The position numbers and the translations under genes were made by a program. Under the pieces are notes generated by a model, which had not been told where the DNA came from, made no database searches, and saw nothing but the letters and a program-made list of their open reading frames with translations. Below are positions 1 to 41,227 of a stretch of 41,227 bases of DNA, one piece after another. Positions within the stretch are counted from its first letter, which is position 1, and each line of letters starts with the position of its first letter. This DNA is from a virus (lineage: Duplodnaviria > Heunggongvirae > Uroviricota > Caudoviricetes): the IMG/VR virus record IMGVR_UViG_2713896799_000015, positions 1 through 41,227 of that record; one strand, 5' to 3'.

Positions 1-516
1 ATGAAATTTAAAAAATGTCTTCTGCCTGTGGCAATGTTAGCGTCATTCACTCTGGCAGGATGCCAGTCAAATGCTGACGATCATGCTGCCGATGTTTATC
101 AAACCGATCAACTGAATACCAAACAAGAAACTAAAACCGTTAATATTATTTCCATTCTTCCCGCAAAAGTTGCCGTAGACAACTCCCAAAATAAACGGAA
201 CGCACAAGCCTTCGGCGCGCTTATTGGCGCAGTCGCTGGCGGTGTTATCGGCCACAACGTCGGGTCTGGCAGCAATTCCGGAACGACGGCAGGTGCAGTT
301 GGCGGCGGAGCTGTAGGCGCGGCAGCGGGTTCTATGGTGAATGATAAAACCTTAGTGGAAGGTGTTTCTTTAACCTATAAGGAAGGCACCAAAGTGTATA
401 CCTCTACCCAGGTGGGTAAAGAGTGCCAGTTTACGACAGGTTTAGCCGTTGTTATTACCACGACGTATAACGAAACGCGTATTCAGCCAAATACCAAATG
501 TCCTGAAAAGAGCTAA
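1..516 (+). CDS. yfgH: Outer-membrane lipoprotein with glycine-zipper region; host flank, probably YfgH
   Basis: Signal peptide with lipobox LAGC, Gly/Ala-rich zipper (GALIGAVAGGVIGH...GAVGGGAVGAAAGS). Size (171 aa) and position next to a 179-aa gene fit E. coli yfgH-yfgI; symbol is from recollection of the locus, not sequence identity. Confidence 0.5.
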   Translation: MKFKKCLLPVAMLASFTLAGCQSNADDHAADVYQTDQLNTKQETKTVNIISILPAKVAVDNSQNKRNAQAFGALIGAVAGGVIGHNVGSGSNSGTTAGAVGGGAVGAAAGSMVNDKTLVEGVSLTYKEGTKVYTSTQVGKECQFTTGLAVVITTTYNETRIQPNTKCPEKS

Positions 517-531
517 TAATCAGGAGGAGTC

Positions 532-1071
532 ATGAAGAAAGTTTTTCTTTGCGCCATCTTAGCCTCCTTAAGCTATCCGGCTATCGCCTCATCATTGCAG
601 GATCAACTCTCTGCTGTCGCAGAAGCGGAACAGCAAGGTAAAAATGAAGAGCAAAGGCAGCATGACGAATGGGTCGCGGAGCGCAACAGGGAAATCCAGC
701 AAGAGAAGCAACGTCGCGCAAATGCCCAGGCCGCCGCTAACAAAAGAGCGGCAACGGCAGCGGCAAATAAGAAAGCTCGTCAGGATAAACTGGACGCCGA
801 AGCCTCTGCGGACAAAAAACGCGATCAAAGTTATGAAGATGAGCTACGCAGCTTAGAGATTCAGAAACAAAAACTGGCGCTGGCGAAAGAAGAAGCCCGC
901 GTTAAGCGAGAAAACGAATTTATCGATCAGGAACTGAAGCACAAAGCTGCGCAAACCGATGTGGTGCAATCTGAAGCTGACGCCAACAGAAATATGACTG
1001 AAGGCGGTCGCGATCTGATGAAAAGCGTGGGCAAAGCAGAAGAGAACAAATCGGACAGCTGGTTTAATTAA
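532..1071 (+). CDS. yfgI: Secreted Lys/Glu/Ala-rich coiled-coil protein; host flank, probably YfgI
   Basis: AGGAGG RBS 8 nt upstream, N-terminal signal peptide, 179 aa as in E. coli YfgI; followed by a strong terminator. Confidence 0.5.
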   Translation: MKKVFLCAILASLSYPAIASSLQDQLSAVAEAEQQGKNEEQRQHDEWVAERNREIQQEKQRRANAQAAANKRAATAAANKKARQDKLDAEASADKKRDQSYEDELRSLEIQKQKLALAKEEARVKRENEFIDQELKHKAAQTDVVQSEADANRNMTEGGRDLMKSVGKAEENKSDSWFN

Positions 1072-1110
1072 TCGATGTTAGTAACTTCAATCCTATAATT
1101 CTTGAAGATA

Positions 1111-1142
1111 AAAAACCCTCTGTAGTAACAGAGGGTTTTGTT
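1111..1142. terminator. Rho-independent terminator (bidirectional look) ending the host operon
   Basis: A-run, stem CCCTCTG (1116-1122), loop TAGTAA, stem CAGAGGG (1129-1135), then TTTTGTT. Confidence 0.7.
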
Positions 1143-1288
1143 CATTCATAGTGCAGGGTCAAATCATTCCCACTCAATTATTTACGACATGAATAACCAA
1201 TTGACTGATAACAACTTTCTGCAACCTGATTTTCACCGTACCGTTTTATATACCGTCACCGGAAATCAGTACCATGAAAAATGCCATG

Positions 1289-1771
1289 CTATCTGGTCAG
1301 GGTGTCGTACTGTTTTTCACAGACTCTTCCGGCTTCGGCTGCCCGGTCAGCATACTCTGCCAGTTGTCTGTTTCTCTCGAGAGATTTGCTGAGCACGTTG
1401 GCAAGCAAAACTCCGGTGTCTGCGGCTGACGTCCCAGCGCCGATAATGGCGTTATACTGCCTGAGCTGCTCACGGATGGCAACGAGCTGTTGCTGCAACC
1501 GGCCAGCGCGAGCGGCAGCATCAAGAGCATCATTGCGCGCCTGGTCGATCCTCTGCTGCGCTTCACGTTCATTGATCGATTTCTCCTGTTCGTAGTGCTG
1601 ACGAACTCTCTCATCTTCGGTTTTGCGGTCTTCTTTCGCCTGCGCATACCCGGCGTCGTACTGACGACTGCCGTGTGCATTCCAGGCGACAACTCCTGAT
1701 ATGACCAGAACAGCAAGCATCGCCATGATAACCAACTGTTTCCAGTATGCTTTTGCGAATGCCCAGATCAT
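1289..1771 (-). CDS. Rz-like i-spanin
   Basis: N-terminal TM helix then charged coiled-coil region; directly downstream of endolysin with 4-nt overlap. Confidence 0.6.
1297..1533 (-). CDS. Rz1-like o-spanin lipoprotein, embedded in Rz in another frame
   Basis: Internal Met followed by [11 protein letters not shown] lipobox and a Pro/Ser-rich 78-aa body, fully inside the Rz ORF. Confidence 0.5.
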   Translation of the reverse strand: MMLLMLPLALAGCSNSSLPSVSSSGSITPLSALGRQPQTPEFCLPTCSANLSRETDNWQSMLTGQPKPEESVKNSTTP

Positions 1772-2397
1772 ACCGCCAGCACCTTACTGGCAGTGATGTA
1801 TCGCGCGCGCCGGTCATCAATGCCGTTCCGACCACCATTGATAAGCAGAGTTACACGTGCAATATCTCCGGTATACTTCATGCAGCCTTTGCTGGAGAAG
1901 AACCACGCCGCGCTACGAGCCGCGTATTCGTCCTGCGCCAGCAGTTCAGGACTCTCCAGCAGGTCAACCTTAAGACCGTTTCCACAGTCACGATAGTTAT
2001 TCAAACCGGTAATCTGGATAAGTCCGCGCCCACGGTAGTTCCAGCCGTCACCATGGGCATTGTTACCCATGCGTTTGCTGTACACCAGATTTGCGATCGC
2101 ACGCTGGCGCTCGAGTGGTAATGGCGGTTCACCAGCACGGCGACCCAGTGCGTTGGCTTGTCCCTGAGTGAGACGACCGGCACGAACGAAGTTAGCCAGT
2201 CCGGTGACGCTGTAGTTGAAATTTTCCTGCAACCGGATGAAGCCTCCAGACTCATGCCCAACCTGAGCAATAAACATTGCCTGATCTTCTGGTTTGCTGA
2301 TACCAAACTCTTTCATCGCAGAAGTTATATGCGAGAACCAGCGTGCGGCCAGCGCCTCGCTAATACCAGCAGCTCGCTGGAATTGTTTAATCTCCAT
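1768..2397 (-). CDS. Endolysin, GH19 (chitinase-like) lysozyme type
   Basis: Motifs [12 protein letters not shown] and [15 protein letters not shown]; start taken at internal MEIKQ (ATG at 2397) rather than the longer ORF. Confidence 0.75.
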
Positions 2398-2695
2398 GTT
2401 TAGACCTCGATATTTTGAAAATCTGAACAACGTTACCGCGTGTTTTAATAACCGCGGCAAGCATGACAGCGTTGATAATGACCTCAGATAAATCCACAGC
2501 CATTGGCGTGCGTAACCAGATTGCATAGACGACACGAACAGGAATACTGGCAGCAGCAACAATAAGGAAATAAGCAAGCCACCCTCCCCATCTTCGATGT
2601 TGAGAGCCGTTACGCCGGAATGTGACAACGCGAATTGCTATGCCAGTACAAATAACTGCATTGGTGATAAGCAAAAAAAACTCATGCGTTACCAT
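2387..2695 (-). CDS. Holin/antiholin-like small membrane protein
   Basis: 102 aa with 2-3 hydrophobic helices, immediately upstream of endolysin. Confidence 0.45.
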
Positions 2696-3095
2696 CGTCT
2701 TTTCTCCCCGGAATTAAATCGCGTGGATTGTCTGAACGGTGGTAGAGCCATATACCAATACGCACAGCGACAATTGCTGACACGAATGCGCCAGCAGAGA
2801 AAACAATCCCTTTTTCAAAAGAGTCCTGCGTGATGGTAGGGATCAGGCTGGCTATGCCGATAAGAATTGATGCTGCTGGTTTGTAGAAAAGAAGTCCGCA
2901 GAGAAAGCTAAGCATCGATAAGAGTACGCGACGATGAATTGGGTACTCTACCGCAGAGGTAACAAAAATTACCGCACCAGCCAAAGACCCTAAAGCAACC
3001 TCAGGAGGAACTCCTGCTATAACCGCAGCAAGAGAACTCATACTAAGCCATTGATTTAAAGATTCGCTGGTTAGCTGAACTGACATAAAGACCAC
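2682..3095 (-). CDS. Holin-like membrane protein
   Basis: 137 aa, several TM segments, charged C-terminus; first gene of lysis cassette. Confidence 0.45.
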   Translation of the reverse strand: MVFMSVQLTSESLNQWLSMSSLAAVIAGVPPEVALGSLAGAVIFVTSAVEYPIHRRVLLSMLSFLCGLLFYKPAASILIGIASLIPTITQDSFEKGIVFSAGAFVSAIVAVRIGIWLYHRSDNPRDLIPGRKDDGNA

Positions 3096-3189
3096 CGTTT
3101 AATGTGCATGAAGCCCCACTTAGTTAGTGAAATAACACACATATTAAACCATATATGAATCACATTTAAACGGATAACTCTTCACGAAA

Positions 3190-3204
3190 TTACCCTATAG
3201 GTGA
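3190..3204. promoter_or_regulatory. Operator-like site TTACC-CTATA-GGTGA (imperfect) upstream of acyltransferase gene
   Basis: Matches the TTACC-N5-GGTAA family with one mismatch in the right half; 37 bp upstream of the 3241 start. Confidence 0.4.
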
Positions 3205-3240
3205 TATCATTGGGTTATCCTATTCAAAACGATAGCAATT

Positions 3241-5181
3241 ATGTCTTATTTAAAATACAGAACAGATATTGATGGGCTGCGAGCTATTGCGGTTTTGCTG
3301 GTCGTGCTGTACCACGCAAACTTTCCTATTCATGGTGGTTTTATTGGTGTAGATGTTTTTTTCGTCATATCAGGATATCTCATTACCAACATCATATATA
3401 AAGAGACTAAAAGAAATATTTTTTCATTCCTTAATTTTTACAAACGTCGAATAAAGAGATTGCTCCCAGCTTTTGCTTTTCTTCTTTTATTTTTATTTGT
3501 TTACTGCAAATTATATTTGATGCCAGATGAACTTATATCATTCTCTAAAAGTGCGGTATACGCTCTTCTTGGCATAAGCAATTTCTATTTTTTTAGTAGC
3601 ACAGGTTACTTTAACTCAACCTCTTATGAACCGCTTTTACACACATGGTCGCTTTCCGTTGAAGAGCAGTTCTACATTGTATGGCCTTTCATCGTTTTCA
3701 TGCTCGCTCGGAACTCAGGGACAAAAAAAGCAATAATAATATCCTCATTACTATTTATTGTATTCCTTGGTATTTCACAGTATGGAGCGGTTAATTATAA
3801 AACAGCAGCGTATCTCCTACTGCCTTTTAGGTTCTTTGAGTTGCTCTCAGGTGCCCTACTTGCTATCTATAAAGATTCAATAACAAAACATCTGCGCCAC
3901 GGTTCTGTAATTTCACTGGTCGGCGTAATGCTGATTGTGTTGAGTTCATTATTTATAAATTCTAACACGCCATTTCCTGGGTTCACTGTTTTGCCTACAT
4001 GTTTAGGCGCTGTAATGCTTATTGCTGCAGGTGACTCATCCAAAAACTTCATTTCTAAAGTGCTGTCTTTAACTCCAGTTGTTTATGTAGGAAGAATTTC
4101 CTACTCTCTTTATTTATGGCACTGGCCTGTACTGATTCTTGCTGAATATAGGGGGATCGATCTTACGGCCTTAAATGCGACGGCGCTCATACTTATCGCA
4201 TTCATCATGGCAAGCATAAGCTATCACTTCGTTGAAAAGCCATTTAGGAAGGATTCGCTGCAATATTTCAGGACTGCATTTATAACCATCTACCTGATAC
4301 CATTAATAGTATCCGCTGCCTATGCAGCGTACATTTTAAAAAATGATGGTTTTCGCGCCAAAAGTTCAGAGTTAGTATCTGAATTAGAAGAGAGAAATGC
4401 GACAAATATTATGCGCCCACAGTGTATTGATAAATTATTTATCGGTAATGTAAATGACTGTCATCTTGGCGTTAATAAAGGCGAAGTAGATGGCGTGCTT
4501 CTTGGTGACTCCTTTGGTAATGCATATGCTTACTTTATTGATGAACTTGCGAAAGATGCTGGAATATCAATAACAGATACTACATATAGCTCAACACCTG
4601 TAATATCAGGAATTTATGTGCAGGATATCAGGAATAAGATATCTGACATAGATGCTAACCTGATAATGACATATACAAAAAACAGGCTGGAGTATGCAGC
4701 AAAACAAAAGTTCGCGATAATTTCCGTTTTTTGGGATCAGTACGGGCCACAAAATAATTACTTCCGTATCTTCGATAAAAACGGTGACGTATCGGAGAAT
4801 GCTTACCAGTTGCAATCTGAAGCAATAAAATATCTGCTGTCCAATGGCGTGAAAGTTTACATCATTGCAAGACCTTACCAGTCTATTGGCCCTGCTGCGA
4901 TAAACAAACTGCGCCAAATTAAGCTGCGGCATGGGGATGTAACAACTGAAAAATATGAATACGGCGTAAAGAAAGATGATCGGATAGAATACAAGTTAAA
5001 GCAGGAGTTCCCTCAGATAACGCTAATCGATCCTAACGATGTACTTTGCCACAAAGGGGAATGTGATGCCATCGTGGATGGAAAGATCATTTTCAGAACT
5101 GATGGTTCACACCTGAATGCTGTTGGAGCAAAAAAAATCGGGGAAGAGTATTTGAAAAACTACGCAAACCCATTTCGATAA
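3241..5181 (+). CDS. O-antigen acetyltransferase, OafA/Oac-like (acyltransferase-3 membrane domain plus C-terminal SGNH-type domain)
   Basis: N-terminal RTDIDGLRAIAVLLVVLYHA...GVDVFFVISGYLIT motif, about 10 TM segments, 646 aa; AT-rich and opposite in strand to neighbours (moron). Confidence 0.8.
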   Translation: MSYLKYRTDIDGLRAIAVLLVVLYHANFPIHGGFIGVDVFFVISGYLITNIIYKETKRNIFSFLNFYKRRIKRLLPAFAFLLLFLFVYCKLYLMPDELISFSKSAVYALLGISNFYFFSSTGYFNSTSYEPLLHTWSLSVEEQFYIVWPFIVFMLARNSGTKKAIIISSLLFIVFLGISQYGAVNYKTAAYLLLPFRFFELLSGALLAIYKDSITKHLRHGSVISLVGVMLIVLSSLFINSNTPFPGFTVLPTCLGAVMLIAAGDSSKNFISKVLSLTPVVYVGRISYSLYLWHWPVLILAEYRGIDLTALNATALILIAFIMASISYHFVEKPFRKDSLQYFRTAFITIYLIPLIVSAAYAAYILKNDGFRAKSSELVSELEERNATNIMRPQCIDKLFIGNVNDCHLGVNKGEVDGVLLGDSFGNAYAYFIDELAKDAGISITDTTYSSTPVISGIYVQDIRNKISDIDANLIMTYTKNRLEYAAKQKFAIISVFWDQYGPQNNYFRIFDKNGDVSENAYQLQSEAIKYLLSNGVKVYIIARPYQSIGPAAINKLRQIKLRHGDVTTEKYEYGVKKDDRIEYKLKQEFPQITLIDPNDVLCHKGECDAIVDGKIIFRTDGSHLNAVGAKKIGEEYLKNYANPFR

Positions 5182-5185
5182 GGAG

Positions 5186-5203
5186 TGCGCCTCGCGGCGC
5201 ACA
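5186..5203. terminator. Hairpin between convergent acyltransferase and tailspike genes
   Basis: GTGCGCC-TCGC-GGCGCAC palindrome between two stop codons. Confidence 0.5.
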
Positions 5204-5211
5204 TGCCTAAA

Positions 5212-7443
5212 TTAAGACTTCTTAATGTACGACCATGTAACAGTGGTCGTACCGCTGCTGGTAATAGATATATTCCTTTCTGATGCGCTTGCTGTGAGGA
5301 ACGCCGCAGTCTTCAGCGTCTGGATCATTGCTGTCGTACCATCATAAATTACCAGGAATGAAATCGCGTAGTTTGCACCTCCGCCAGAAACCCACACGTT
5401 AACATCATAAACTCCCTCAGAGTTTGGCAAAGTAAATAGCACGGACGCTACGTTAGCGTTGACCGATTTAGTACCCTTGTCGGTATAGACCGTGGGCACC
5501 TGAAGCCCATTGGCATTTTTATTTTCTACATACCCACCAGCAATAACGCCTGACGTGATGCAGTTCGTGTAGTTAACGTTGCCGGTGCTCACAGTAGAGA
5601 TGGTTGGAGTTCCTCCGGCCGGAGCCTGGAACCGGCAGTTATCTGCATCAACCTGCGAGGTTACATCTGCGTGGATGAATGATGGATAGCCGGCCATTCC
5701 TTCAAAAGCGATCGGCGTACCATCGAAGCTATCTTTGCAGTTCAGCATCTTCACGCGAGATCCATTCATCGCGCGGTAAAAATCAACGATACCATTAGAA
5801 CCACCGAAAGATGTTTTCAACTTGTTGCCAGAACCAACTGCCCCGACTATCGAAACGGTTGAATTATCGAATGTCATAAACGCCACCTCAAGTGCTGAGT
5901 TGTTGTTTATAACGTTCGCCTCACCATCAAAACCGGAGATAAGAAATCCGTGACAATTCGAAAGGTAAATAGCAGACTGACCGATAGACGCGTTGGAGTT
6001 TACTGTCATCTTATCTGCTGCGCAGTTCGTCATCTGCCCTGAAAGGAGGTTTGTTAAATACCACGCGCATACACCCCCCATTACATAGCAGGACTCATAA
6101 TGGATCGTCGTGCCGGTGTTTTTGTAGAAACCACCGCGACTGCGACGCACCCATACATGCTCAAGCCTAGACATATAATTTCCAGAGTCGTCATATACTC
6201 CCCACCATGCCCCATCTATATCGACGTTTTTAATCCTTATCAAACCCGGCGATGTCTCACCACCATTTATAAGAATGCCAATTTTACCGTCGTTTGTGGC
6301 AGCATCTGTTGGATAGTCAATTCCATTCTGATCATAGAAAATATATAAATTCTCAATATTTCCTGAAGCAAAAGACTCTCCATAATGGAAGCACGCTTTA
6401 TTTCCAATTACGGAAATAAAAGTCCCTGATCTGTTTATTATGTTATTACACTCACCGTATACAGTTGCAGATGTATTCATCTTAATAATGTCATTAACAA
6501 AATATGCATTTCCACCTGGAATAAACACATTTCGTCCAGTGTTAATAGCTGCCTGTATTCCTGCGTAGTCAAAAGACTGGGTAAGCGATGTCACAAATGG
6601 ATATACCATTTGTGCTGCTGTCAATGTTGAAAACACTTCGCTTAACTGATGAAGTTTTCCATCGCCTGTAGCACCAAAATCTTTTGCACTAATAAAATCG
6701 CTGTTTTTATCATGCTGTGTACGAATAAATGAACTAATGAAAGGTTGCTTCACCGAGATCAGAGCATCGCCTTTCCCGTCCTCGCCGCTGGCCAACTGGT
6801 TGAATACGTCAGCCGCCGTTCCTGAAGGCACAGGGAACGGAACGGGCTTACCGTTGGCGATGCCGATTATGCTTCCTTCAAGTTGAGCGAGAGGTGGCAG
6901 CGGATCGATATAAGAATCAGGAACACGGATTGTATGGTCGATATTCGATAAAACTGTACTGTCCACATAATTCTTTGTGGATGCATCCTGCGGGTTTACC
7001 GGGTCTTTCAGGTTTCGAATATAGTTGTTCAGCGCGTTATAATAATTTGCCACGAATGACGGCTTGCGCAGCGCCAAGCTAAACCAACTTCGAACCTGCT
7101 GGATCAGCATCGTTAGCTTATCAAAAGCATCCTCATGCACTTCTGCAAAGAACTTACCCTGATTACGCAAATCAGTTTCCTGCGTAACCGGGAGCTCTCG
7201 TGATATAGAAATCTGGTAACCGTTAGCTAACGCCTTCGACAGAATTACATTACCGCCGTTATATCCACCAGCCCCAGTGACAGTGTAATCAGTATCAAGA
7301 GCCAGCACAGCGATATTTTCGTCAAGGTCAACCACCTGCACTACCAGATCAGATTCCTTGAAAACCCTAAAGGTATAAGGGAATGAAGTCGTAACGCCAT
7401 TGCCTGTGTATTCGTTGTGGTCAACTTCGGTTGAGACCGTCAT
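5212..7443 (-). CDS. Tailspike / tail fiber protein
   Basis: N-terminus (YTGNGVTTSFPYTFRVF...) resembles the T7 gp17-type adaptor domain; long Gly/Asn-rich beta-helix-like body; last gene of the T7-like structural order. Confidence 0.7.
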   Translation of the reverse strand: MTVSTEVDHNEYTGNGVTTSFPYTFRVFKESDLVVQVVDLDENIAVLALDTDYTVTGAGGYNGGNVILSKALANGYQISISRELPVTQETDLRNQGKFFAEVHEDAFDKLTMLIQQVRSWFSLALRKPSFVANYYNALNNYIRNLKDPVNPQDASTKNYVDSTVLSNIDHTIRVPDSYIDPLPPLAQLEGSIIGIANGKPVPFPVPSGTAADVFNQLASGEDGKGDALISVKQPFISSFIRTQHDKNSDFISAKDFGATGDGKLHQLSEVFSTLTAAQMVYPFVTSLTQSFDYAGIQAAINTGRNVFIPGGNAYFVNDIIKMNTSATVYGECNNIINRSGTFISVIGNKACFHYGESFASGNIENLYIFYDQNGIDYPTDAATNDGKIGILINGGETSPGLIRIKNVDIDGAWWGVYDDSGNYMSRLEHVWVRRSRGGFYKNTGTTIHYESCYVMGGVCAWYLTNLLSGQMTNCAADKMTVNSNASIGQSAIYLSNCHGFLISGFDGEANVINNNSALEVAFMTFDNSTVSIVGAVGSGNKLKTSFGGSNGIVDFYRAMNGSRVKMLNCKDSFDGTPIAFEGMAGYPSFIHADVTSQVDADNCRFQAPAGGTPTISTVSTGNVNYTNCITSGVIAGGYVENKNANGLQVPTVYTDKGTKSVNANVASVLFTLPNSEGVYDVNVWVSGGGANYAISFLVIYDGTTAMIQTLKTAAFLTASASERNISITSSGTTTVTWSYIKKS

Positions 7444-7547
7444 GTTAAATCTCCAGATAGTCGCAGCACCCGTTGCGCCGCATATCTGGTTATTCTATTA
7501 CCTGAAAAACCATATATGGATAGAAAGGCTGTAAATACGAATAGATA

Positions 7548-7562
7548 TTACCTTTCAGGTAA
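7548..7562. promoter_or_regulatory. Operator TTACCTTTCAGGTAA (perfect)
   Basis: 15-bp palindrome; the 16-mer ATTACCTTTCAGGTAA is identical to the copy at 25375-25390. Confidence 0.6.
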
Positions 7563-7599
7563 TTTGCAAAACGTGCTGGATAGCAAACAAATTATTTGC

Positions 7600-7619
7600 T
7601 ACTGTATAAATATACAGTT
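7600..7619. promoter_or_regulatory. LexA (SOS) box
   Basis: TACTGTATAAATATACAGTT matches consensus TACTGTATATATATACAGTA at 18 of 20 positions; 20 bp upstream of the 7640 ATG. Confidence 0.75.
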
Positions 7620-7639
7620 ATTGCATGGAGAAGATTAAG

Positions 7640-7897
7640 ATGCAGCAGTATCACTATCCACTGGAAGACGGATTTACCGAAAGGATTCACACGCCGGGAG
7701 GCGTCAGGTCACTGGTGGAGGGATCGCACTTGATGAAATTACTCCGGGATCTCGATAAGGATGGATTTAATGTCGATGGCCCACTTGCCGAACTGACTGC
7801 ACTGATTAACTACGTCACCAGCTCACAGATGTCTATGCGGGATCTGCAAACACATCTCGACTATTGTGCCGAACAATTACGAAAACAAACCCGGTAA
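7640..7897 (+). CDS. Small antirepressor-like protein (stand-alone homolog of Ant C-terminal domain)
   Basis: GGAG 9 nt upstream of ATG; aligns with the last ~85 residues of the 312-aa Ant (shared YxYPL, IHxPxGV, LMKLL, DG, AELT, RDxQTH). Confidence 0.55.
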   Translation: MQQYHYPLEDGFTERIHTPGGVRSLVEGSHLMKLLRDLDKDGFNVDGPLAELTALINYVTSSQMSMRDLQTHLDYCAEQLRKQTR

Positions 7898-7971: not shown

Positions 7972-8910
7972 TCAGAAGAACCCTGCCTTGTCGTTGATGT
8001 ATTCCGCGTGCGTCTGGATATCACGCAGGCATTTGCTCACACCGACGATGTAGCAGAACATGGTGGTCAGCTCCGCCGCCGCGCCCGATACATCGTGCCC
8101 GTCTTCCTGTAACTGGTTCAGCAGTTTCATCAGCAGTGAGTTCTCCGTCAGGCCGAGAACACCCGACGGCGAATGAATCAGACTGCGGTAGCCTGGCTTC
8201 AATGGATAACCATAACATTTTGTCTGTGTTTTAATTGCCTCACGAAGCGCATCTAACATCTTGACTGCCACTTCATCATTCTCTGATGCAGATCCAGCAG
8301 GGAGATACTCCCCTTCAAGCGGAACCCGAGCAACAAGAGACAACGCTTCGGCAAATTGATCTTCACCAATTTCTTTGTACGAACAGCCAAAATGAGATTT
8401 CAGTGACGACCACATGGTGATCATCGCCTTAGCCTGTTTTTCTTTTGGCAGAGACTGACCGCGACTCATGACGAGTTGTTTAATGGCTTCCTGCTGTTCA
8501 GTTGTTATTTTACCCGGCAACGCCTTTTTAGCTTTGCGTGGGTTAACCACATGGCCTTTAGTCCAGTACTCGTAGAGCACATCGTCACACTCTTCCTGAT
8601 ACTGGATTACCTTGTCGCGGATTTCAGGGCGGACTTTGTTAGGGCTGATGCTGTTCAACCAAGCTGCCAATTTTCGTAAAGCCATACAAATCATGGCTTG
8701 CACCCCACCGGCAGAAGGTATGGTGATTTCCACCATACCCTTCGAGAAGCGTTGAGAAATCTTCTTATGTTGAGATTTCCAGTCTAGCCCCATTCCCTCA
8801 ACGATAGGTTTCATTGGGGTATACGGTTCGCCGTTGTGATTGACAACATAAAGCTCTGCGCCGTGGAATGGCACGTTGATAGTAGATACTGCTGTTGCTA
8901 TACTCGTCAT
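7972..8910 (-). CDS. Antirepressor Ant
   Basis: 312 aa, directly downstream of an Arc-like gene as in P22 immI; C-terminal domain shared with the small LexA-linked gene. Confidence 0.65.
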   Translation of the reverse strand: MTSIATAVSTINVPFHGAELYVVNHNGEPYTPMKPIVEGMGLDWKSQHKKISQRFSKGMVEITIPSAGGVQAMICMALRKLAAWLNSISPNKVRPEIRDKVIQYQEECDDVLYEYWTKGHVVNPRKAKKALPGKITTEQQEAIKQLVMSRGQSLPKEKQAKAMITMWSSLKSHFGCSYKEIGEDQFAEALSLVARVPLEGEYLPAGSASENDEVAVKMLDALREAIKTQTKCYGYPLKPGYRSLIHSPSGVLGLTENSLLMKLLNQLQEDGHDVSGAAAELTTMFCYIVGVSKCLRDIQTHAEYINDKAGFF

Positions 8911-8958
8911 GTCGTTAATTCCTATACGTAGTTTTACGATACTGAAGCCCTGACGGTC

Positions 8959-8973
8959 TGGCCACCGTGGGGC
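8959..8973. promoter_or_regulatory. Mnt/Arc-type operator-like site (core CCACCGTGGGGC)
   Basis: Shares 12 bp with the 9165-9179 palindrome; lies between arc and ant. Confidence 0.4.
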
Positions 8974-8982
8974 TTCGCTGTT

Positions 8983-9179: not shown

Positions 9180-9270
9180 AAAATAATTGTCACACCGTGC
9201 GTCATTGATGTCAAGCACACGGTGAGGCATACTTCAATCATTGCAAGTAACTCAATATTTGGTGAAGAAC

Positions 9271-9702
9271 ATGAGCAGAGAAGATCCACAACTAAGGATC
9301 AGACTTCCCGTCGAAGTAAAAGAAAAAATAGAAATTTCTGCAAAAGCCAATAAGCGATCAATGAACGCTGAAATAGTACAACGTCTTGACACCAGCTTTC
9401 TGAAAGATATTCATGAAGATGACGTAATTTCTGCTTATGAAGCAAAAATCATTGCAAACAATGCACGACATGAAATATCAAATATTATTTTCAAAAGAAC
9501 CTTTAATGAAATTAATAAGAAAATAACACTTGGACATACAAGTTTTTATATAAACCTTAATGACCTTGAACTGGAATCACTTGCAGATAATGATTACCAG
9601 ATCATCTTTGAAAAAACATTTAATAAGCTCAATGAACTAGGTTACATCATCTGTGAAAACTCATGGGATGCAGATGGTTTTGGAATTGAAATACCTGAAT
9701 AG
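9271..9702 (+). CDS. Mnt-like RHH repressor with ~70-aa AT-rich C-terminal extension
   Basis: N-terminus MSREDPQLRIRLPVEVKEKIEISAKANKRSMNAEIVQRL parallels P22 Mnt; protein is 143 aa versus 82 for Mnt. Confidence 0.5.
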   Translation: MSREDPQLRIRLPVEVKEKIEISAKANKRSMNAEIVQRLDTSFLKDIHEDDVISAYEAKIIANNARHEISNIIFKRTFNEINKKITLGHTSFYINLNDLELESLADNDYQIIFEKTFNKLNELGYIICENSWDADGFGIEIPE

Positions 9703-9744
9703 GAAGAACAAAAGGCGTGTACATATTACACGTCTTTAATACAA

Positions 9745-10356
9745 TTGAAAAACGCCACATTACTGATGTATGTTACAACAAGGAGCGATATTTTGAAAAC
9801 CATATCTATATTAAAGGTTGCATTAGGCGTCGCTATTATTTTGACTCTCTCAATATTGTTTTATTTTTACCACAAACAAACTGCTATTGCTCTTGATAGT
9901 CACGCGGCAAACTCATTTTTCTCAGAGTACATAGTGCCGCTATCAGGAAGCGGTATAACAAATAAATATACTGACTATGACATCAAATATGGAATTGATG
10001 ATGGGGAGACTATTGTATTACATGTAATCATTAAAAACCTAATGACAGTAAATAAAAATACAGACTTCAACGATAAAAATACAATACATCACAACAACAG
10101 CAAAACATTAATTTCTTATAGTAGCAACATCTATACGGATAAATACCTAAAATACATATCAGAAGATACAATAAAAGAAACCCGCGAAAAGTTAAAAAAC
10201 ATATATTGTGCATCCGGCAGTTTTCACAAATTATCGCCGCAAGAGCGTTTATTCTACGAAGCAAGAAAACAACGTAAGTCAATAATATTACATTATTATG
10301 CTGATTCAGGGGAGACACTCATATTTAATATTGGGGTTTCCCCTGAATCATGCTAA
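9745..10356 (+). CDS. Membrane-anchored protein of unknown function (candidate superinfection-exclusion protein)
   Basis: Single N-terminal TM helix, Asn/Lys/Tyr-rich body, very AT-rich; occupies the position of sieA next to mnt in P22. Confidence 0.4.
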   Translation: MKNATLLMYVTTRSDILKTISILKVALGVAIILTLSILFYFYHKQTAIALDSHAANSFFSEYIVPLSGSGITNKYTDYDIKYGIDDGETIVLHVIIKNLMTVNKNTDFNDKNTIHHNNSKTLISYSSNIYTDKYLKYISEDTIKETREKLKNIYCASGSFHKLSPQERLFYEARKQRKSIILHYYADSGETLIFNIGVSPESC

Positions 10357-20557: not shown

Positions 20558-20902
20558 TTACACGCCAAGTTCTTTACGCTTATCTGCGATCTTCTCGCGG
20601 AGCGTTTCGGCTTTGGCGTTATGGTGTGGCTTCTCGTTAAAGAGCAATTCGTACTCTTCACGGAGCTTATCCAGTTCACCATCATCTGACACATCATTGA
20701 TGATTTTGGTGCTGGTTGCTGCCATTGACACCTTTCCTGCAACTTTTGCTTTTGCCTGTCTGGCTGCATCGTTAACAGGTTCCAGTGCGCTACCAGGCTC
20801 ACCTTCGTATTCGATTTCTGCCCCCTCCGGCCACAGTGTGTTATGGATATGAGAGAGGCGCAGAACGCGGTATCTTGGTTTCTCACCTGACATCGAAATC
20901 AC
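20558..20902 (-). CDS. Hypothetical virion protein
   Basis: 114 aa; preferred over the overlapping 20476-20886 frame because of fit to neighbours. Confidence 0.35.
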   Translation of the reverse strand: MISMSGEKPRYRVLRLSHIHNTLWPEGAEIEYEGEPGSALEPVNDAARQAKAKVAGKVSMAATSTKIINDVSDDGELDKLREEYELLFNEKPHHNAKAETLREKIADKRKELGV

Positions 20903-25353: not shown

Positions 25354-25390
25354 TTGACATTTAACGCGTGAATTATTACCTTTCAGGTAA
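25354..25390 (+). promoter_or_regulatory. Promoter-like TTGACA plus operator TTACCTTTCAGGTAA (25376-25390)
   Basis: TTGACA at 25354-25359; perfect operator copy begins 17 bp later, upstream of the tRNA unit. Confidence 0.45.
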
Positions 25391-25712: not shown

Positions 25713-25789
25713 GTGGCATTAGCTCAGTCGGACAGAGCAACCGCCTTCTAAGCGGTTGGTCGCAGGTTCGAATCCTGCATGCCACGCCA
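25713..25789 (+). tRNA. tRNA-Arg (anticodon UCU)
   Basis: 77-nt cloverleaf: acceptor GTGGCAT/ATGCCAC, anticodon stem ACCGC/GCGGT, loop CTTCTAA, T-arm GCAGG-TTCGAAT-CCTGC, encoded CCA. Confidence 0.85.
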
Positions 25790-27925: not shown

Positions 27926-28518
27926 TGATTACCATCCTGACGTTCTTTGAGTCGCTTCCTGGCTGCCGCTATGCGATCAGCAATTGTCACATTCACATTA
28001 ACATCCAGGCGTTCTTTGAACGCGTTGACGTCGACGTGCTTACCAATCAGTTCGAGGTTCTTCACCTTGTCAGGCCATTTAATTTTTTTGAGGATTGTCT
28101 CTATCGAATCCTCGTTCATGTTCATGATGGTCGATGACAGATCAAAGCCACTAAGCGTAGTGCGCCAGATTTTCGGCCACTCGCGGATTGGCTTAAGGCT
28201 CCCATCGTCGTTGAGGATGTCGATCACGTCCATCTGGTCGATCTCCACCAGGCGCATGAGAACGTAATCAGCACTGACGCGCATTCGTTTGTTGCGCTCC
28301 TCCATCAACTCGGCAATCCGTTTTTGAATGCGTTCATCGCGCATCATGACACTGGCTTTAACTGCCGCTGTATTTGGGGAGAATCCTGCGTTAATCGCTG
28401 CCTGAGTCTGGTTTTCAGGCGTTTTGATGTATGACTGGCAATAAGCCTCCTGCATTGCTGTTAGTGGCTTAAATTGCGTTGATTTGCGTTTATAGGTTTT
28501 AGGTTCAGCAGGCATCAT
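27922..28518 (-). CDS. Terminase small subunit
   Basis: Start taken at MMPAEPK (28518); the longer ORF's N-terminal extension lies over a DNA repeat region and is unlikely to be translated. Confidence 0.55.
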   Translation of the reverse strand: MMPAEPKTYKRKSTQFKPLTAMQEAYCQSYIKTPENQTQAAINAGFSPNTAAVKASVMMRDERIQKRIAELMEERNKRMRVSADYVLMRLVEIDQMDVIDILNDDGSLKPIREWPKIWRTTLSGFDLSSTIMNMNEDSIETILKKIKWPDKVKNLELIGKHVDVNAFKERLDVNVNVTIADRIAAARKRLKERQDGNQ

Positions 28519-28560
28519 AACCACCGTGGTAATAGTTACCGTTGTGGTAATAGTACCATG

Positions 28561-32610: not shown

Positions 32611-32688
32611 TTACCCCTTAGGTAATTAAAAACCACATAAGACATGAAATCAATAGAAATTAGAACATTTTATTACCTACAAGGTAAT
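32611..32688. promoter_or_regulatory. Two perfect operators (TTACCCCTTAGGTAA 32611-32625; TTACCTACAAGGTAA 32674-32688)
   Basis: First copy starts 4 bp from the ATG of the 32607 gene and covers its RBS; both lie in a 117-bp gap between same-strand genes. Confidence 0.55.
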
Positions 32689-34618: not shown

Positions 34619-34633
34619 TTACCTTTGAGGTAC
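34619..34633. promoter_or_regulatory. Operator-like site TTACCTTTGAGGTAC (one mismatch)
   Basis: Between the cro-like gene and the next downstream gene. Confidence 0.4.
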
Positions 34634-34955: not shown

Positions 34956-35019
34956 TCACCTATAAGGTAACAAAAATCAAGGATAGTTACCCATGAGGTG
35001 CATTTACCTGTTGGGTAAT
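34956..35019. promoter_or_regulatory. Operator cluster (OR-like): three sites between cro-like and repressor genes
   Basis: TCACCTATAAGGTAA (34956-34970), TTACCCATGAGGTGC (34987-35001), TTACCTGTTGGGTAA (35005-35019). Confidence 0.6.
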
Positions 35020-35073: not shown

Positions 35074-35658
35074 ATGAAAAGTATCCAGGACGTCCGCAGG
35101 CAAAATCTCAACGACTTGATCGACCGTGAATTCAATGGTGTTCAGACGCGGATGGCTGAAAAACTTGGAACTCAGGCAAATCTGGTAAACCGCTGGGCTC
35201 TTGGCAAGAAGGTTATCGGCGACCAGGTTGCGCGAAAAATTGAAGCTGCCGCCAATAAACCCCGTAACTGGCTTGATATCGATCGCTCGCTTTCTCAGGA
35301 AGGTTTTCAGCCTGTCGGACCAAGCGACATTGGTCAACTGGCGGCTCACAACCTGGAACGCTGGATGAGCGAAAGCCGCGACCTTTCAACGCAGGGAAAA
35401 CTTCACCGCGCATCCGGCGTCGCCCAGGTGACAATCAGCCGCCTGTTAAACAATGAGGTCAGCGTTTCCATTTCCACCCTGGAGAATGTTGCATCCGCAT
35501 TCGGGCGTCACGGCTATGAATTACTGATTCACCCGCACGACCCTGCGACTATCAACTATGACCGCTCGCGCTACGCTTTGTTACCCGAAACCGAGAAAGC
35601 AAAGATCGAAAGTTACATTGAATTTGTCATCAACCAGAACGAAAAAAACAAACAATAA
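35074..35658 (+). CDS. Prophage repressor, tandem HTH, no peptidase domain
   Basis: Two XRE-type HTH segments in 194 aa; no S24 Ser/Lys autopeptidase region; flanked by operator clusters. Confidence 0.55.
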   Translation: MKSIQDVRRQNLNDLIDREFNGVQTRMAEKLGTQANLVNRWALGKKVIGDQVARKIEAAANKPRNWLDIDRSLSQEGFQPVGPSDIGQLAAHNLERWMSESRDLSTQGKLHRASGVAQVTISRLLNNEVSVSISTLENVASAFGRHGYELLIHPHDPATINYDRSRYALLPETEKAKIESYIEFVINQNEKNKQ

Positions 35659-35715: not shown

Positions 35716-35792
35716 TTACCTAACAGGTAATTTTTTTAACTCATATCTATTGACATCAAACCAGATACGCATAATTATTACCTCAACGGTAA
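35716..35792. promoter_or_regulatory. Operator pair (OL-like) with TTGACA promoter element between them
   Basis: TTACCTAACAGGTAA (35716-35730) and TTACCTCAACGGTAA (35778-35792); TTGACA at 35750-35755. Confidence 0.6.
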
Positions 35793-39970: not shown

Positions 39971-41227
39971 TTATTTATTACTGTCTTCCATCCACTTCTC
40001 AAACTTCGACGGGGAGAACGGAATCAGATCCGTATGCTCCCCGTCAATCCAGGAATCAATCATATCTGCCCACTGCTGCAACATGTAGGCGCGCTGTCTG
40101 GCGTATTCCGCTTTGTTATATACGGCGCGCACACCTTTCTGCTCATGTGCCAGAGCCTTTTCAATCCAGTCTGAAGGATAACCAGCCTCATGCAATAACG
40201 TACTGGCTGTACGGCGCATATCGTGTACGGTGAAGTCCTGAATATGCTCACCATTTTCATTTATTATTTTCACCGTTCTGTCGATCAGAGAGTTCAGCGC
40301 GGCATTAGATAATGGCTTCCGGAAGTTGTAACGACCAGGAACCAGATATTCACTTCCACCAGCGCACATCTGCAGCCCGACCAATATATCCTGTGCCTGT
40401 TTAGGCAGGTAAATAACGTGCGCCCGGCTTCCCTTCATGCGGTCTGAAGGAATTGTCCATGTCCATTTTTTAAAATCTATTTCGTCCCACGTTGCATTGG
40501 TGAATTCGCCTTTACGAACCATAGTGATAAGCACCAGCTTTAAAGCCATTTTCATAGTGCCCATAGCACCAATGGCATCCAGCGTGCGGAAGAACAGACC
40601 AATTTCTTCTGGTGTCAGTGTTCGCTCTCGTGGTTTAAATATGGCGATAGACGAAGGTTTAATGTCAGCAGCAGGATTAAACAAACCATGACCACGGTCA
40701 TTGGCATGACGGTATACGCTGCTGATGATCTCCCTGGCCTGCACTGCTGTTGCCCGGCCGCCGCGTTCGACAATCCGGTCACACAAATCACGAACCATCG
40801 ATGTGGTAATTTCAGCCATCATTTTGTTACCAAGAACAGGAAGTATGTCACGGTCGATCACCGCCTGCTTCATTGCGCGGGTACTGTCAGCCAGGATGAC
40901 GTGTTTCATATAACTGTCGGTATGTACCGCAAACGTCTCGGCACCACGAATCTTTTTGATACCGTCACGTTTAGCCGCAGCCGGTGACTGGCCTGCTTTA
41001 AGCAGCTTCTTTGCAGCAATCAGTTCTTCTCGCGCTTCTGCCAGGCTGATACCGTCACGCCCATACTGCCCAATTACCAGTGTTTCGCGGCGACCGTTGA
41101 TACGGTAGTCATAGCGAAACGAGACCGTGCCTGACGTAAGCACAGCTACATACAGCCCGTCACGATCGGAGACCTTGTACAGTTTGTCCTGCGGCTTGAG
41201 GTTTTTTAATTTTGTATCGGTAAGCAC
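39971..41227 (-). CDS. Tyrosine integrase, P4-type; 5' end may be truncated by window
   Basis: N-terminal DUF4102-like arm-binding region, HDMRRT (H-x-x-R) and C-terminal Tyr region; ORF runs to the last base. Confidence 0.8.
   Translation of the reverse strand: MLTDTKLKNLKPQDKLYKVSDRDGLYVAVLTSGTVSFRYDYRINGRRETLVIGQYGRDGISLAEAREELIAAKKLLKAGQSPAAAKRDGIKKIRGAETFAVHTDSYMKHVILADSTRAMKQAVIDRDILPVLGNKMMAEITTSMVRDLCDRIVERGGRATAVQAREIISSVYRHANDRGHGLFNPAADIKPSSIAIFKPRERTLTPEEIGLFFRTLDAIGAMGTMKMALKLVLITMVRKGEFTNATWDEIDFKKWTWTIPSDRMKGSRAHVIYLPKQAQDILVGLQMCAGGSEYLVPGRYNFRKPLSNAALNSLIDRTVKIINENGEHIQDFTVHDMRRTASTLLHEAGYPSDWIEKALAHEQKGVRAVYNKAEYARQRAYMLQQWADMIDSWIDGEHTDLIPFSPSKFEKWMEDSNK

Follow-up and report, generated by a model that had tools for sequence, protein, structure and literature searches.

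The DNA analysed here, referred to below as the window, is the whole 41,227-nucleotide (nt) stretch of IMG/VR record IMGVR_UViG_2713896799_000015. To judge from its sequence, the element it holds is a guaA-integrated, phiV10-homoimmune prophage of the genus Uetakevirus (epsilon15/phiV10-like). Behind its tailspike gene, in convergent orientation, lies a gene for a 646-amino-acid (aa) acyltransferase, which an earlier note on this DNA had read as a phage-borne O-antigen acetyltransferase that changes the serotype and blocks superinfection. The gene, its promoter/operator box and the adjoining tailspike are the subject of this work, and the features on which the argument depends are as follows.

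3187..3210, plus strand: promoter/operator box AAATTACC-CTATA-GGTGATATCAT (promoter scan, conservation, palindrome count)
3212..6961 (approximate), no strand: exchangeable module of acyltransferase coding sequence, hairpin and tailspike receptor-binding part (alignment with relatives)
3241..5181, plus strand: acyltransferase gene, 646 aa, AT3-SGNH, the OafA/OafB architecture (Pfam, PHROGs, AlphaFold model)
3265..4212, plus strand: AT3 membrane domain, aa 9-324 (Pfam Acyl_transf_3, PF01757)
4447..5154, plus strand: SGNH domain, predicted periplasmic, aa 403-638 (Pfam PF19040)
5185..5202, no strand: GC-rich hairpin with a stem of 7 base pairs and a 4-nt loop (folding; GTGCGCC-TCGC-GGCGCAC between the convergent stop codons)
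5212..7443, minus strand: tailspike gene, convergent with the acyltransferase gene
5212..6961, minus strand: receptor-binding/enzymatic part of the tailspike, about aa 162-743, parallel beta-helix (homology break, fold matches)
6962..7443, minus strand: N-terminal particle-binding part of the tailspike, epsilon15-type, conserved, first ~160 residues (homology to phiV10)
7548..7562, no strand: perfect palindrome copy TTACCTTTCAGGTAA, ~100-105 nt upstream of the tailspike start codon (equivalent phiV10 site 20877-20891)
35074..35658, plus strand: prophage repressor gene, 194 aa, helix-turn-helix (Pfam HTH_3), candidate binder of the palindrome family

The acyltransferase gene and its product

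The open reading frame (ORF) at 3241..5181 runs on the plus strand, opposite to the late genes, as the earlier note had it; the tailspike, holin-like, holin, endolysin and Rz genes are all on the minus strand. The AT-rich insert described there was also recovered. The GC content is 38.1% in the gene and 33.1% in the spacer upstream of it, against a window mean of 48.0% (standard deviation 3.7) over 1941-nt segments, of which just 1.1% fall below the gene.

Pfam assigned aa 9-324 to Acyl_transf_3 (E 1.8e-37; score 129.6 bits, cut-off 31) and aa 403-638 to the family 'SGNH fused to AT3' (E 2.7e-27), and the protein matched PHROG 6705, 'O-antigen acetylase' of the category moron, over its full length (E 2.2e-166). 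The list of essential residues was taken from the mutagenesis study of Salmonella OafA (PMC7448272), where mutation of these residues abolishes activity or cuts it to less than 5% of wild type. Equivalents of all of them were found, namely R14, H25, G33, D38, R70, R73, S113, E332, S424 and H624, and F34 and D621 correspond to residues that OafA requires partially. The AT3 motifs are R14-x10-H25 in helix 1, GGFIGVD at 32-38, FFVISG at 40-45, R70-I-K-R73 (RxxR) and S113-N114. The features specific to fused proteins are G32-G33-F34-I-G36-V37-D38 in helix 2, S113 in the loop between helices 3 and 4, and E332 after helix 10. In the SGNH domain, Ser424 lies in GDS 422-424 (block I) and D621-G-S-H624 forms the DxxH of block V, which together supply the triad; cysteine pairs 395/407 and 603/608 are found in the same region. 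Most of the OafA-equivalent residues are invariant in an alignment of 57 homologues, including R14, H25, R70, R73 and S424, and H624 is kept in at least 90%. Every acyltransferase allele compared keeps all catalytic residues.

The AlphaFold model built on this alignment (predicted local distance difference test, pLDDT, 90.7) has 11 long helices before residue 368, the last at aa 343-367, followed by a linking helix and an alpha/beta domain; the hydropathy profile has nine strong peaks. The top solved structure in Foldseek was 6SE1, the periplasmic domain of OafB (E 1.2e-5; template modelling score 0.64 normalised to the target), with the PatB peptidoglycan O-acetyltransferases ranking after it. 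OafB was found by the fold search alone, as phmmer against PDB sequences gave no match at E <= 0.01. PADLOC returned no defence-family match for the acyltransferase, and the sole NCBIfam match, to the succinyltransferase SucT, scored 129 bits against a cut-off of 1275 and is uninformative.

In the window the frame of 646 codons is unbroken, and in 8/8 carrier genomes the gene is annotated as an ordinary acyltransferase coding sequence free of a pseudogene flag. Compared with its 84.4%-identical homologue in L006, a 39.4-kb phage contig, the ratio of nonsynonymous to synonymous substitution rates (dN/dS) is 0.08 at a dS of about 1-1.2. The gene thus has an unbroken frame with a complete set of catalytic residues, and it evolves under purifying selection.

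By its domains and motifs, the protein belongs to the OafA/OafB architectural class and not to the Oac class, so that the earlier designation 'OafA/Oac-type' holds in its first half only. Both the phiV10 Oac (PhiV10p26) and the window protein are Pfam AT3 proteins; however, the former has 338 aa and is AT3-only, whereas the latter has a fused SGNH domain, and BLASTP gave no significant similarity between the two (best E 0.45). Salmonella OafA and OafB, the latter being the family II GtrC of prophage BTP1, share the two-domain architecture, the motifs and the catalytic triad, and OafB structure 6SE1 is the best match to the SGNH model. OafB is prophage-borne and acetylates rhamnose (PMC9558356), and the O2 backbone is likewise rich in rhamnose. 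On the other hand, BTP1 GtrC is ~36% identical over the N-terminal two-thirds alone, the OafA Cys439/453 pair is missing from the window protein, and OafA/OafB occupy another slot in P22-like phages, whereas the present phage is epsilon15-like. The 'O-antigen acetylases' of Tyrion, vB_EcoP_PAS61 and Pseudomonas D3 (orf28) are full-length AT3-SGNH proteins of temperate podophages/siphophages, those of the epsilon15-like Tyrion and PAS61 being encoded behind the tailspike, but they are just 28-30% identical to the window protein. Epsilon15 itself has the same genus-level genome plan with receptor-modifying genes behind the tailspike; it alters the O-antigen polymerase linkage and suppresses acetylation, and adds no acetyl groups. 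The Oac of Sf6 and OacB/C/D of Shigella flexneri, which are likened to the window protein by description, are AT3-only and belong to a different phage lineage. In the case of Sf6, phage-borne acetylation of an O-antigen of the Rha-Rha-Rha-GlcNAc type blocks the phage's own endorhamnosidase tailspike (PMC9558356), and the window tailspike has that of Sf6 among its fold matches.

Exchange with the tailspike, and the host serogroup

The first 218-254 residues of the tailspike share ~67-74% aa identity with the tailspikes of phiV10, epsilon15 and SPN1S. From about aa 250 the structure model is all-beta with pLDDT 80-95, and its top fold matches were the tailspikes LKA1 gp49, phi297 gp61, Sf6, HK620 and CBA120 TSP2; the N-terminal 250 residues were poorly modelled as a monomer, and no conclusion is drawn from that part. 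According to the model, the protein is a beta-helix O-antigen/capsule depolymerase-type tailspike, in keeping with the O-antigen-type tailspike that had been placed next to the gene. Literature searches did not find the host O-type of the lytic phages with the most similar tailspike.

By superposing the relatives on the window, the limits of the variable part may be read. In this region phiV10 aligned at 1162-3211 and 6962-7897 alone; L003, the prophage of E. coli OkiPb01684 in which the slot is empty, aligned over 1-3168 and resumed at 6962; and L007 aligned to 3687 and then from 6959. The homology of the tailspike to all three breaks at 6959-6962, and the breaks thus define a variable module at about 3212-6961. 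The whole module is present in L006 at 77% nt identity, where both the acyltransferase and the tailspike are 84.4% identical in aa, with dN/dS of 0.08 and 0.09 at a dS of about 1. Between flanks that are 82-94% identical, the content of the slot varies. There is no gene in L003; phiV10 has its AT3-only Oac paired with the O157 tail fibre; L007 has a 51%-identical AT3-SGNH paired with an unrelated receptor-binding part; and L011 and L012 have a 27-29% identical AT3-SGNH paired with a receptor-binding part just 30-44% identical. A further homologue, 50% identical and located beside thrS, is convergent with a tailspike of another type. The alignments indicate joint exchange and parallel divergence of the acyltransferase and the receptor-binding part of the tailspike.

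In L003, at the same site, the tailspike (4186-6825) has 879 aa and a GDSL/SGNH esterase domain at aa 567-757; a deacetylase-type tailspike thus stands where the window phage has an acetylase-plus-depolymerase pair.

The closest functional precedent is phiV10, which has the same Uetakevirus backbone, flanks 88-89% identical in nt and an identical repressor. Its oac lies in the same slot between the tailspike and the lysis genes, in the same opposite-strand orientation, behind the same box and ahead of a hairpin; it is reported to acetylate the O157 antigen and to block phiV10 infection (PMC9558356, PMC11854483). The two phages differ in serogroup, O157 for phiV10 and O2/O50 here, and in the receptor-binding part of the tailspike. 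The likeness to phiV10 drawn in the earlier note is therefore borne out for position and superfamily and not for orthology.

The bidirectional hairpin of the earlier note is present between the two stop codons, with folding energies of -16.2 and -17.8 kcal/mol on the two strands (z -2.2 and -2.4). It is kept at the same place in the relatives, being identical in L006, altered by a compensatory arm change in L007 and replaced by a different hairpin in phiV10. Since no T-run follows on either side, the terminator scan did not call it, and it is best regarded as a candidate two-way terminator or RNA-end stabiliser.

The distribution of the gene was determined in 5,426 complete E. coli genomes, with a match threshold of at least 99% identity, and eight of them carry it. 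The O2/O50 wzy gene of strain 04-00955 (L005) served as serogroup query, alone or joined to the module as a chimeric query. The chimeric query matched at two places in each of the eight carriers, and its total of 133 genomes is the same as that of wzy alone, which means that all eight carriers are O2/O50. The naive hypergeometric probability of this linkage is ~1e-13, a value inflated by relatedness, since 04-00955 and VG38-53E1 are close relatives and the carriers may be few clones. The module occurs in at least three prophage backbones, with matches ending at 7897, 7921 and 7934, and the window, being a 99.8% match to L003 from 7903 on, is a fourth. Megablast returned no match when 3000-5300 was compared with 50,697 phage records, so the allele is absent from sequenced phages at the DNA level.

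Strain 04-00955, published as an STEC (Shiga toxin-producing E. coli) of serotype O2:H6 and sequence type ST141 (PMC3958309), has the O2/O50 cluster. In that cluster (L005 38318-38692), the acetyltransferase gene of the Fuc3NAc pathway lies between those for the 3,4-ketoisomerase and the aminotransferase and is annotated only in the form of two short, incomplete pieces, and the Fuc3NAc branch of this strain may be affected as a result. As a cause of the serological split between O2 and O50, the acyltransferase gene was rejected: the review PMC7685785 attributes the split to a point mutation in fdtB, through which the Fuc3NAc branch is lost. A 42.3-kb prophage contig in IMG/VR (L061 3242-5182; IMGVR_UViG_2541047709_000005) also contains this 646-aa gene, equally spaced from the same box, which means that the element is already in a public viral collection, unannotated.

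A palindromic box with a probable tie to the immunity circuit

The sequence TTACCCTATAGGTGA at 3190-3204 reads TTACC-N5-GGTGA and is one mismatch from the palindrome TTACC-N5-GGTAA. The promoter scan placed an extended -10 in the box (TG at 3202-3203, TATCAT at 3205-3210) and a weak -35, TTCACG, at 3181-3186 with a spacing of 18; consequently, the palindrome sits between the -35 and the -10 and takes in the TG of the extended -10. When a single mismatch is allowed, the window contains 13 members of the palindrome family where chance would give 0.76, and phiV10 contains 14 where it would give 0.64, which puts the operator-like site of the earlier note on firm ground. A generic inverted-repeat and palindrome shuffle test over 3096-3240 gave nothing beyond chance; this test was too blunt and is overturned by the family count. 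For a leftward promoter of the lysis genes, the scan detected no sigma-70-like site in this spacer. Besides the two copies listed above, the family is matched at the following places.

25376-25390, 28518-28550, 32611-32687, 34619-34633, 34956-35018 and 35716-35792: other palindrome-family sites (family match)

One pair of copies lies in the repressor-cro spacer, just upstream of the repressor gene (34956 and 35004), and a second pair surrounds a TTGACA promoter directly after that gene (35716 and 35778). Further copies precede the replication-distal operon, the small terminase gene, the portal operon, the tailspike gene and the acyltransferase gene, and the copies stand at equivalent operon junctions in the window and in phiV10. 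The prophage repressor is 100% identical to the phiV10 repressor p40, and given this identity and the positions of the sites, the palindromes are most simply its operators; we infer both the binder and the sign of its effect. Palindromes at nearly every operon junction of the prophage, at positions that match phiV10, are an observation in their own right, which suggests that one repressor directly controls many promoters, those of structural genes included. In literature searches, no published operator sequence was found for repressors of the epsilon15/phiV10 type.

A second box, CCATATATG, is common to the acyltransferase spacer and the region upstream of the tailspike; its four matches against 1.24 expected are not a significant enrichment. 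As a CCATATATG(G/A) palindrome it occupies 3149-3158, on the side of the spacer that faces the lysis genes and ~30 nt away from the operator; a second copy, at 7510-7519, is similarly far downstream of the tailspike operator. The palindrome is conserved in phiV10, L006 and L007.

The promoter/operator box is conserved in the window, phiV10, L006 and L007 ahead of differing downstream genes, and the form AAATTACC-N5-GGTGATATnAT is kept ahead of four different acyltransferase genes. At every acyltransferase-linked copy of the palindrome, GGTGA replaces GGTAA, a change that gives rise to the TG of the extended -10 and should make the site weaker. L003 has neither the acyltransferase gene nor the palindrome copy linked to it. 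The exact 21-nt box occurs at 95 loci in IMG/VR, at 21 of which an ORF of at least 249 aa begins within ~95 nt downstream (all but two within 45 nt). Pfam places all 21 ORFs in AT3, with five having the AT3-SGNH architecture, and identities among them are for the most part just 13-31%; the box matches that lack such an ORF look like chance. Because the box is kept while the downstream genes vary, the promoter/operator may be regarded as a fixed backbone element and the acyltransferase as swappable cargo. The moron label of the earlier note thus fits the variable presence and deviant GC content of the gene and probably does not extend to full autonomy, the promoter/operator being conserved phage backbone.

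Taken further, these results raise a possibility that we put forward tentatively. Behind the tailspike gene of epsilon15/phiV10-like phages there could be a conserved, repressor-wired socket with the box AAATTACC-N5-GGTGATAT; unrelated AT3 genes would be inserted into it, in most cases along with a new receptor-binding part for the tailspike. The immunity circuit would then govern receptor modification, which would be either leaky in the lysogen or switched on early upon infection or induction, and not an autonomous constitutive moron function, and a subset of O2/O50 E. coli (8/133 complete genomes) would bear an undescribed O-acetylated O2 variant. No published description of an operator-promoter socket was found in literature searches.

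The remainder of the prophage agrees with its placement in Uetakevirus. Host genes yfgH and yfgI occupy the left end of the window, and the attL core ATTGAGTGGGAATGATT lies at 1162-1178 (core sequence from PMC9782041). Between 5200 and 25000, 89% of the window matches TL-2011b at 97.7%, and the gene order is that of phiV10. In both the window and phiV10, the slot runs in the order tailspike, acyltransferase on the opposite strand, three-transmembrane (3-TM) protein, holin, endolysin and Rz.

1289-1771, minus strand: Rz
between Rz and holin, minus strand: GH19 endolysin
2387-2695, minus strand: holin
2682 to about 3087-3095, minus strand: 3-TM holin-like gene
39971-41227: integrase gene, cut by the window end

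A P22-type immI-like region is found between the tail genes and the tailspike, at 8912-8979 (plus), 7972-8910 (minus) and 9241-9702 (plus); it encodes a sar antisense RNA (Rfam RF00262, 44.8 bits), an antirepressor containing a P22_AR_N domain, and a protein that has an Arc domain. Strong AT-richness recurs at 9300-10356 (~30-32% GC), here too on the opposite strand from the late genes. The 203-aa ORF of this second stretch (9745-10356) matches no Pfam family and gave just a weak TIR-like (ThsB) match in PADLOC (E 0.006); it may be another accessory or defence gene. In addition, a tRNA-Arg (anticodon TCT) lies inside the prophage at 25713-25789 (plus), on the strand opposite to the head genes.

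Proposed function and alternatives

Based on the results presented above, the gene probably encodes an inner-membrane AT3-SGNH O-acetyltransferase of a phiV10-like prophage, exchanged with the tailspike receptor-binding part and modifying the O2/O50 receptor. The O-antigen modification proposed in the earlier note is supported in silico by the slot of phiV10 oac, the intact catalytic residues, the purifying selection, the inheritance with the tailspike part and the restriction to O2/O50 hosts; from the same data we infer acetylation, its donor and substrate, the effect on adsorption and superinfection exclusion.

In such a mechanism, transcription would start from the extended -10 promoter that overlaps a weakened copy of the phage immunity operator. 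R14/H25 in helix 1 and R70/R73 are the candidate residues for the first step, and the 11th helix would put the SGNH domain in the periplasm. There the Ser424/Asp621/His624 triad would pass the acetyl group to a hydroxyl of the O2/O50 O-antigen repeat, which consists of three L-rhamnoses and N-acetylglucosamine, with or without Fuc3NAc. Acetylated O-antigen might no longer be properly bound or cut by the matching tailspike. Consequently, phage-carrying or freshly infected cells would stop adsorbing phage, and the O-epitope would change.

Several points weigh against this interpretation. An operator that lies over the promoter spacer and the -10 would normally mean repression by the prophage repressor. 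The spacer 5' of the start codon has no clear Shine-Dalgarno sequence, O-acetyl groups on O2/O50 antigens go unmentioned in the available text of the review PMC7685785, and the serogroup statistic is inflated as described above. In addition, the closest non-phage homologues (73-77% aa), on Enterobacter asburiae and Citrobacter freundii chromosomes (L008 3988-7935, L009 3817-8662), lie outside prophages and O-antigen clusters, beside an MBOAT and AlgX-type pair near cls and opp, so that the clade is not tied to the O-antigen by context alone. These copies are AT-rich relative to their flanks (37-38% against 48-50% GC), and that of Citrobacter is split into frames of 89 aa and 553 aa.

The first of these points leads to an alternative in timing. 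The enzyme and its target would be the same, but the gene would be largely repressed in the stable lysogen and switched on early after infection or at induction. Its role would be a rapid masking of the receptor in the lytic or establishment phase, limiting superinfection and the loss of progeny on debris, and not a permanent serotype conversion. Since the operator overlaps the promoter core and covers the TG of the extended -10, expression in a stable lysogen cannot be assumed. The pairs in the repressor-cro spacer and around the TTGACA promoter take classical repressor-operator positions, and copies of the palindrome also stand ahead of the tailspike, portal-operon and terminase regions, whose silence a lysogen requires. 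However, the GGTGA change in all acyltransferase-linked copies may let this promoter escape repression, and the literature calls the phiV10 gene an immunity or serotype-conversion function, though the experiments cited for it are plasmid expression. Overall, this alternative timing appears rather unlikely to us.

A second alternative concerns the target: a different envelope glycan could be acylated, such as the enterobacterial common antigen, colanic acid, a K capsule, the lipopolysaccharide core, peptidoglycan or periplasmic glucans, and the link to the tailspike would be merely physical. AT3 and AT3-SGNH proteins act on many substrates (PMC9558356), the nearest chromosomal homologues have the setting given above, a Pseudomonas homologue is a lone gene, and the only NCBIfam match is to SucT, far under its cut-off. 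Against this stand the slot shared with phiV10 oac, the divergence in parallel with the tailspike receptor-binding part, the confinement of the gene to O2/O50 hosts, the O-antigen enzyme OafB as top fold match, and the homologue by thrS that is also paired with a convergent tailspike. Another glycan as the target is thus improbable. That the gene no longer has a function and is an inert passenger or a remnant in decay, as the AT-rich foreign DNA, the lack of a clear ribosome-binding site and the split Citrobacter homologue might suggest, is scarcely credible given an intact 646-codon frame with no pseudogene flag in 8/8 genomes, a dN/dS of 0.08 over a dS of ~1.2, catalytic residues kept in every allele compared and a conserved promoter box.

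O-acetylation of the O2/O50 O-antigen remains the favoured function. Phage-borne O-antigen acetylation beside a tailspike is a well-known phage trick and not a new kind of system; what is new is this allele, its restriction to O2/O50, its co-divergence with the tailspike and the shared operator-promoter socket. Such acetylation alters serotype, phage susceptibility and antibody recognition. O2 is among the serotypes in glycoconjugate vaccine candidates against extraintestinal pathogenic E. coli, so an acetylated O2 variant that goes unrecognised could bear on vaccine coverage, on serotyping and on which therapeutic phages or tailspike-based reagents are chosen. O2/O50 E. coli are the only carriers of the allele, and among them is the heteropathogenic lineage O2:H6 ST141 of STEC and uropathogenic E. 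coli (PMC3958309, PMC11948896). The module also backs the prediction of host O-types from prophage tailspikes, with the caveat that a prophage may have altered the very receptor it used (PMC10408124). Finally, searching for the shared operator box is a simple way to locate such modification genes among epsilon15-like phages.

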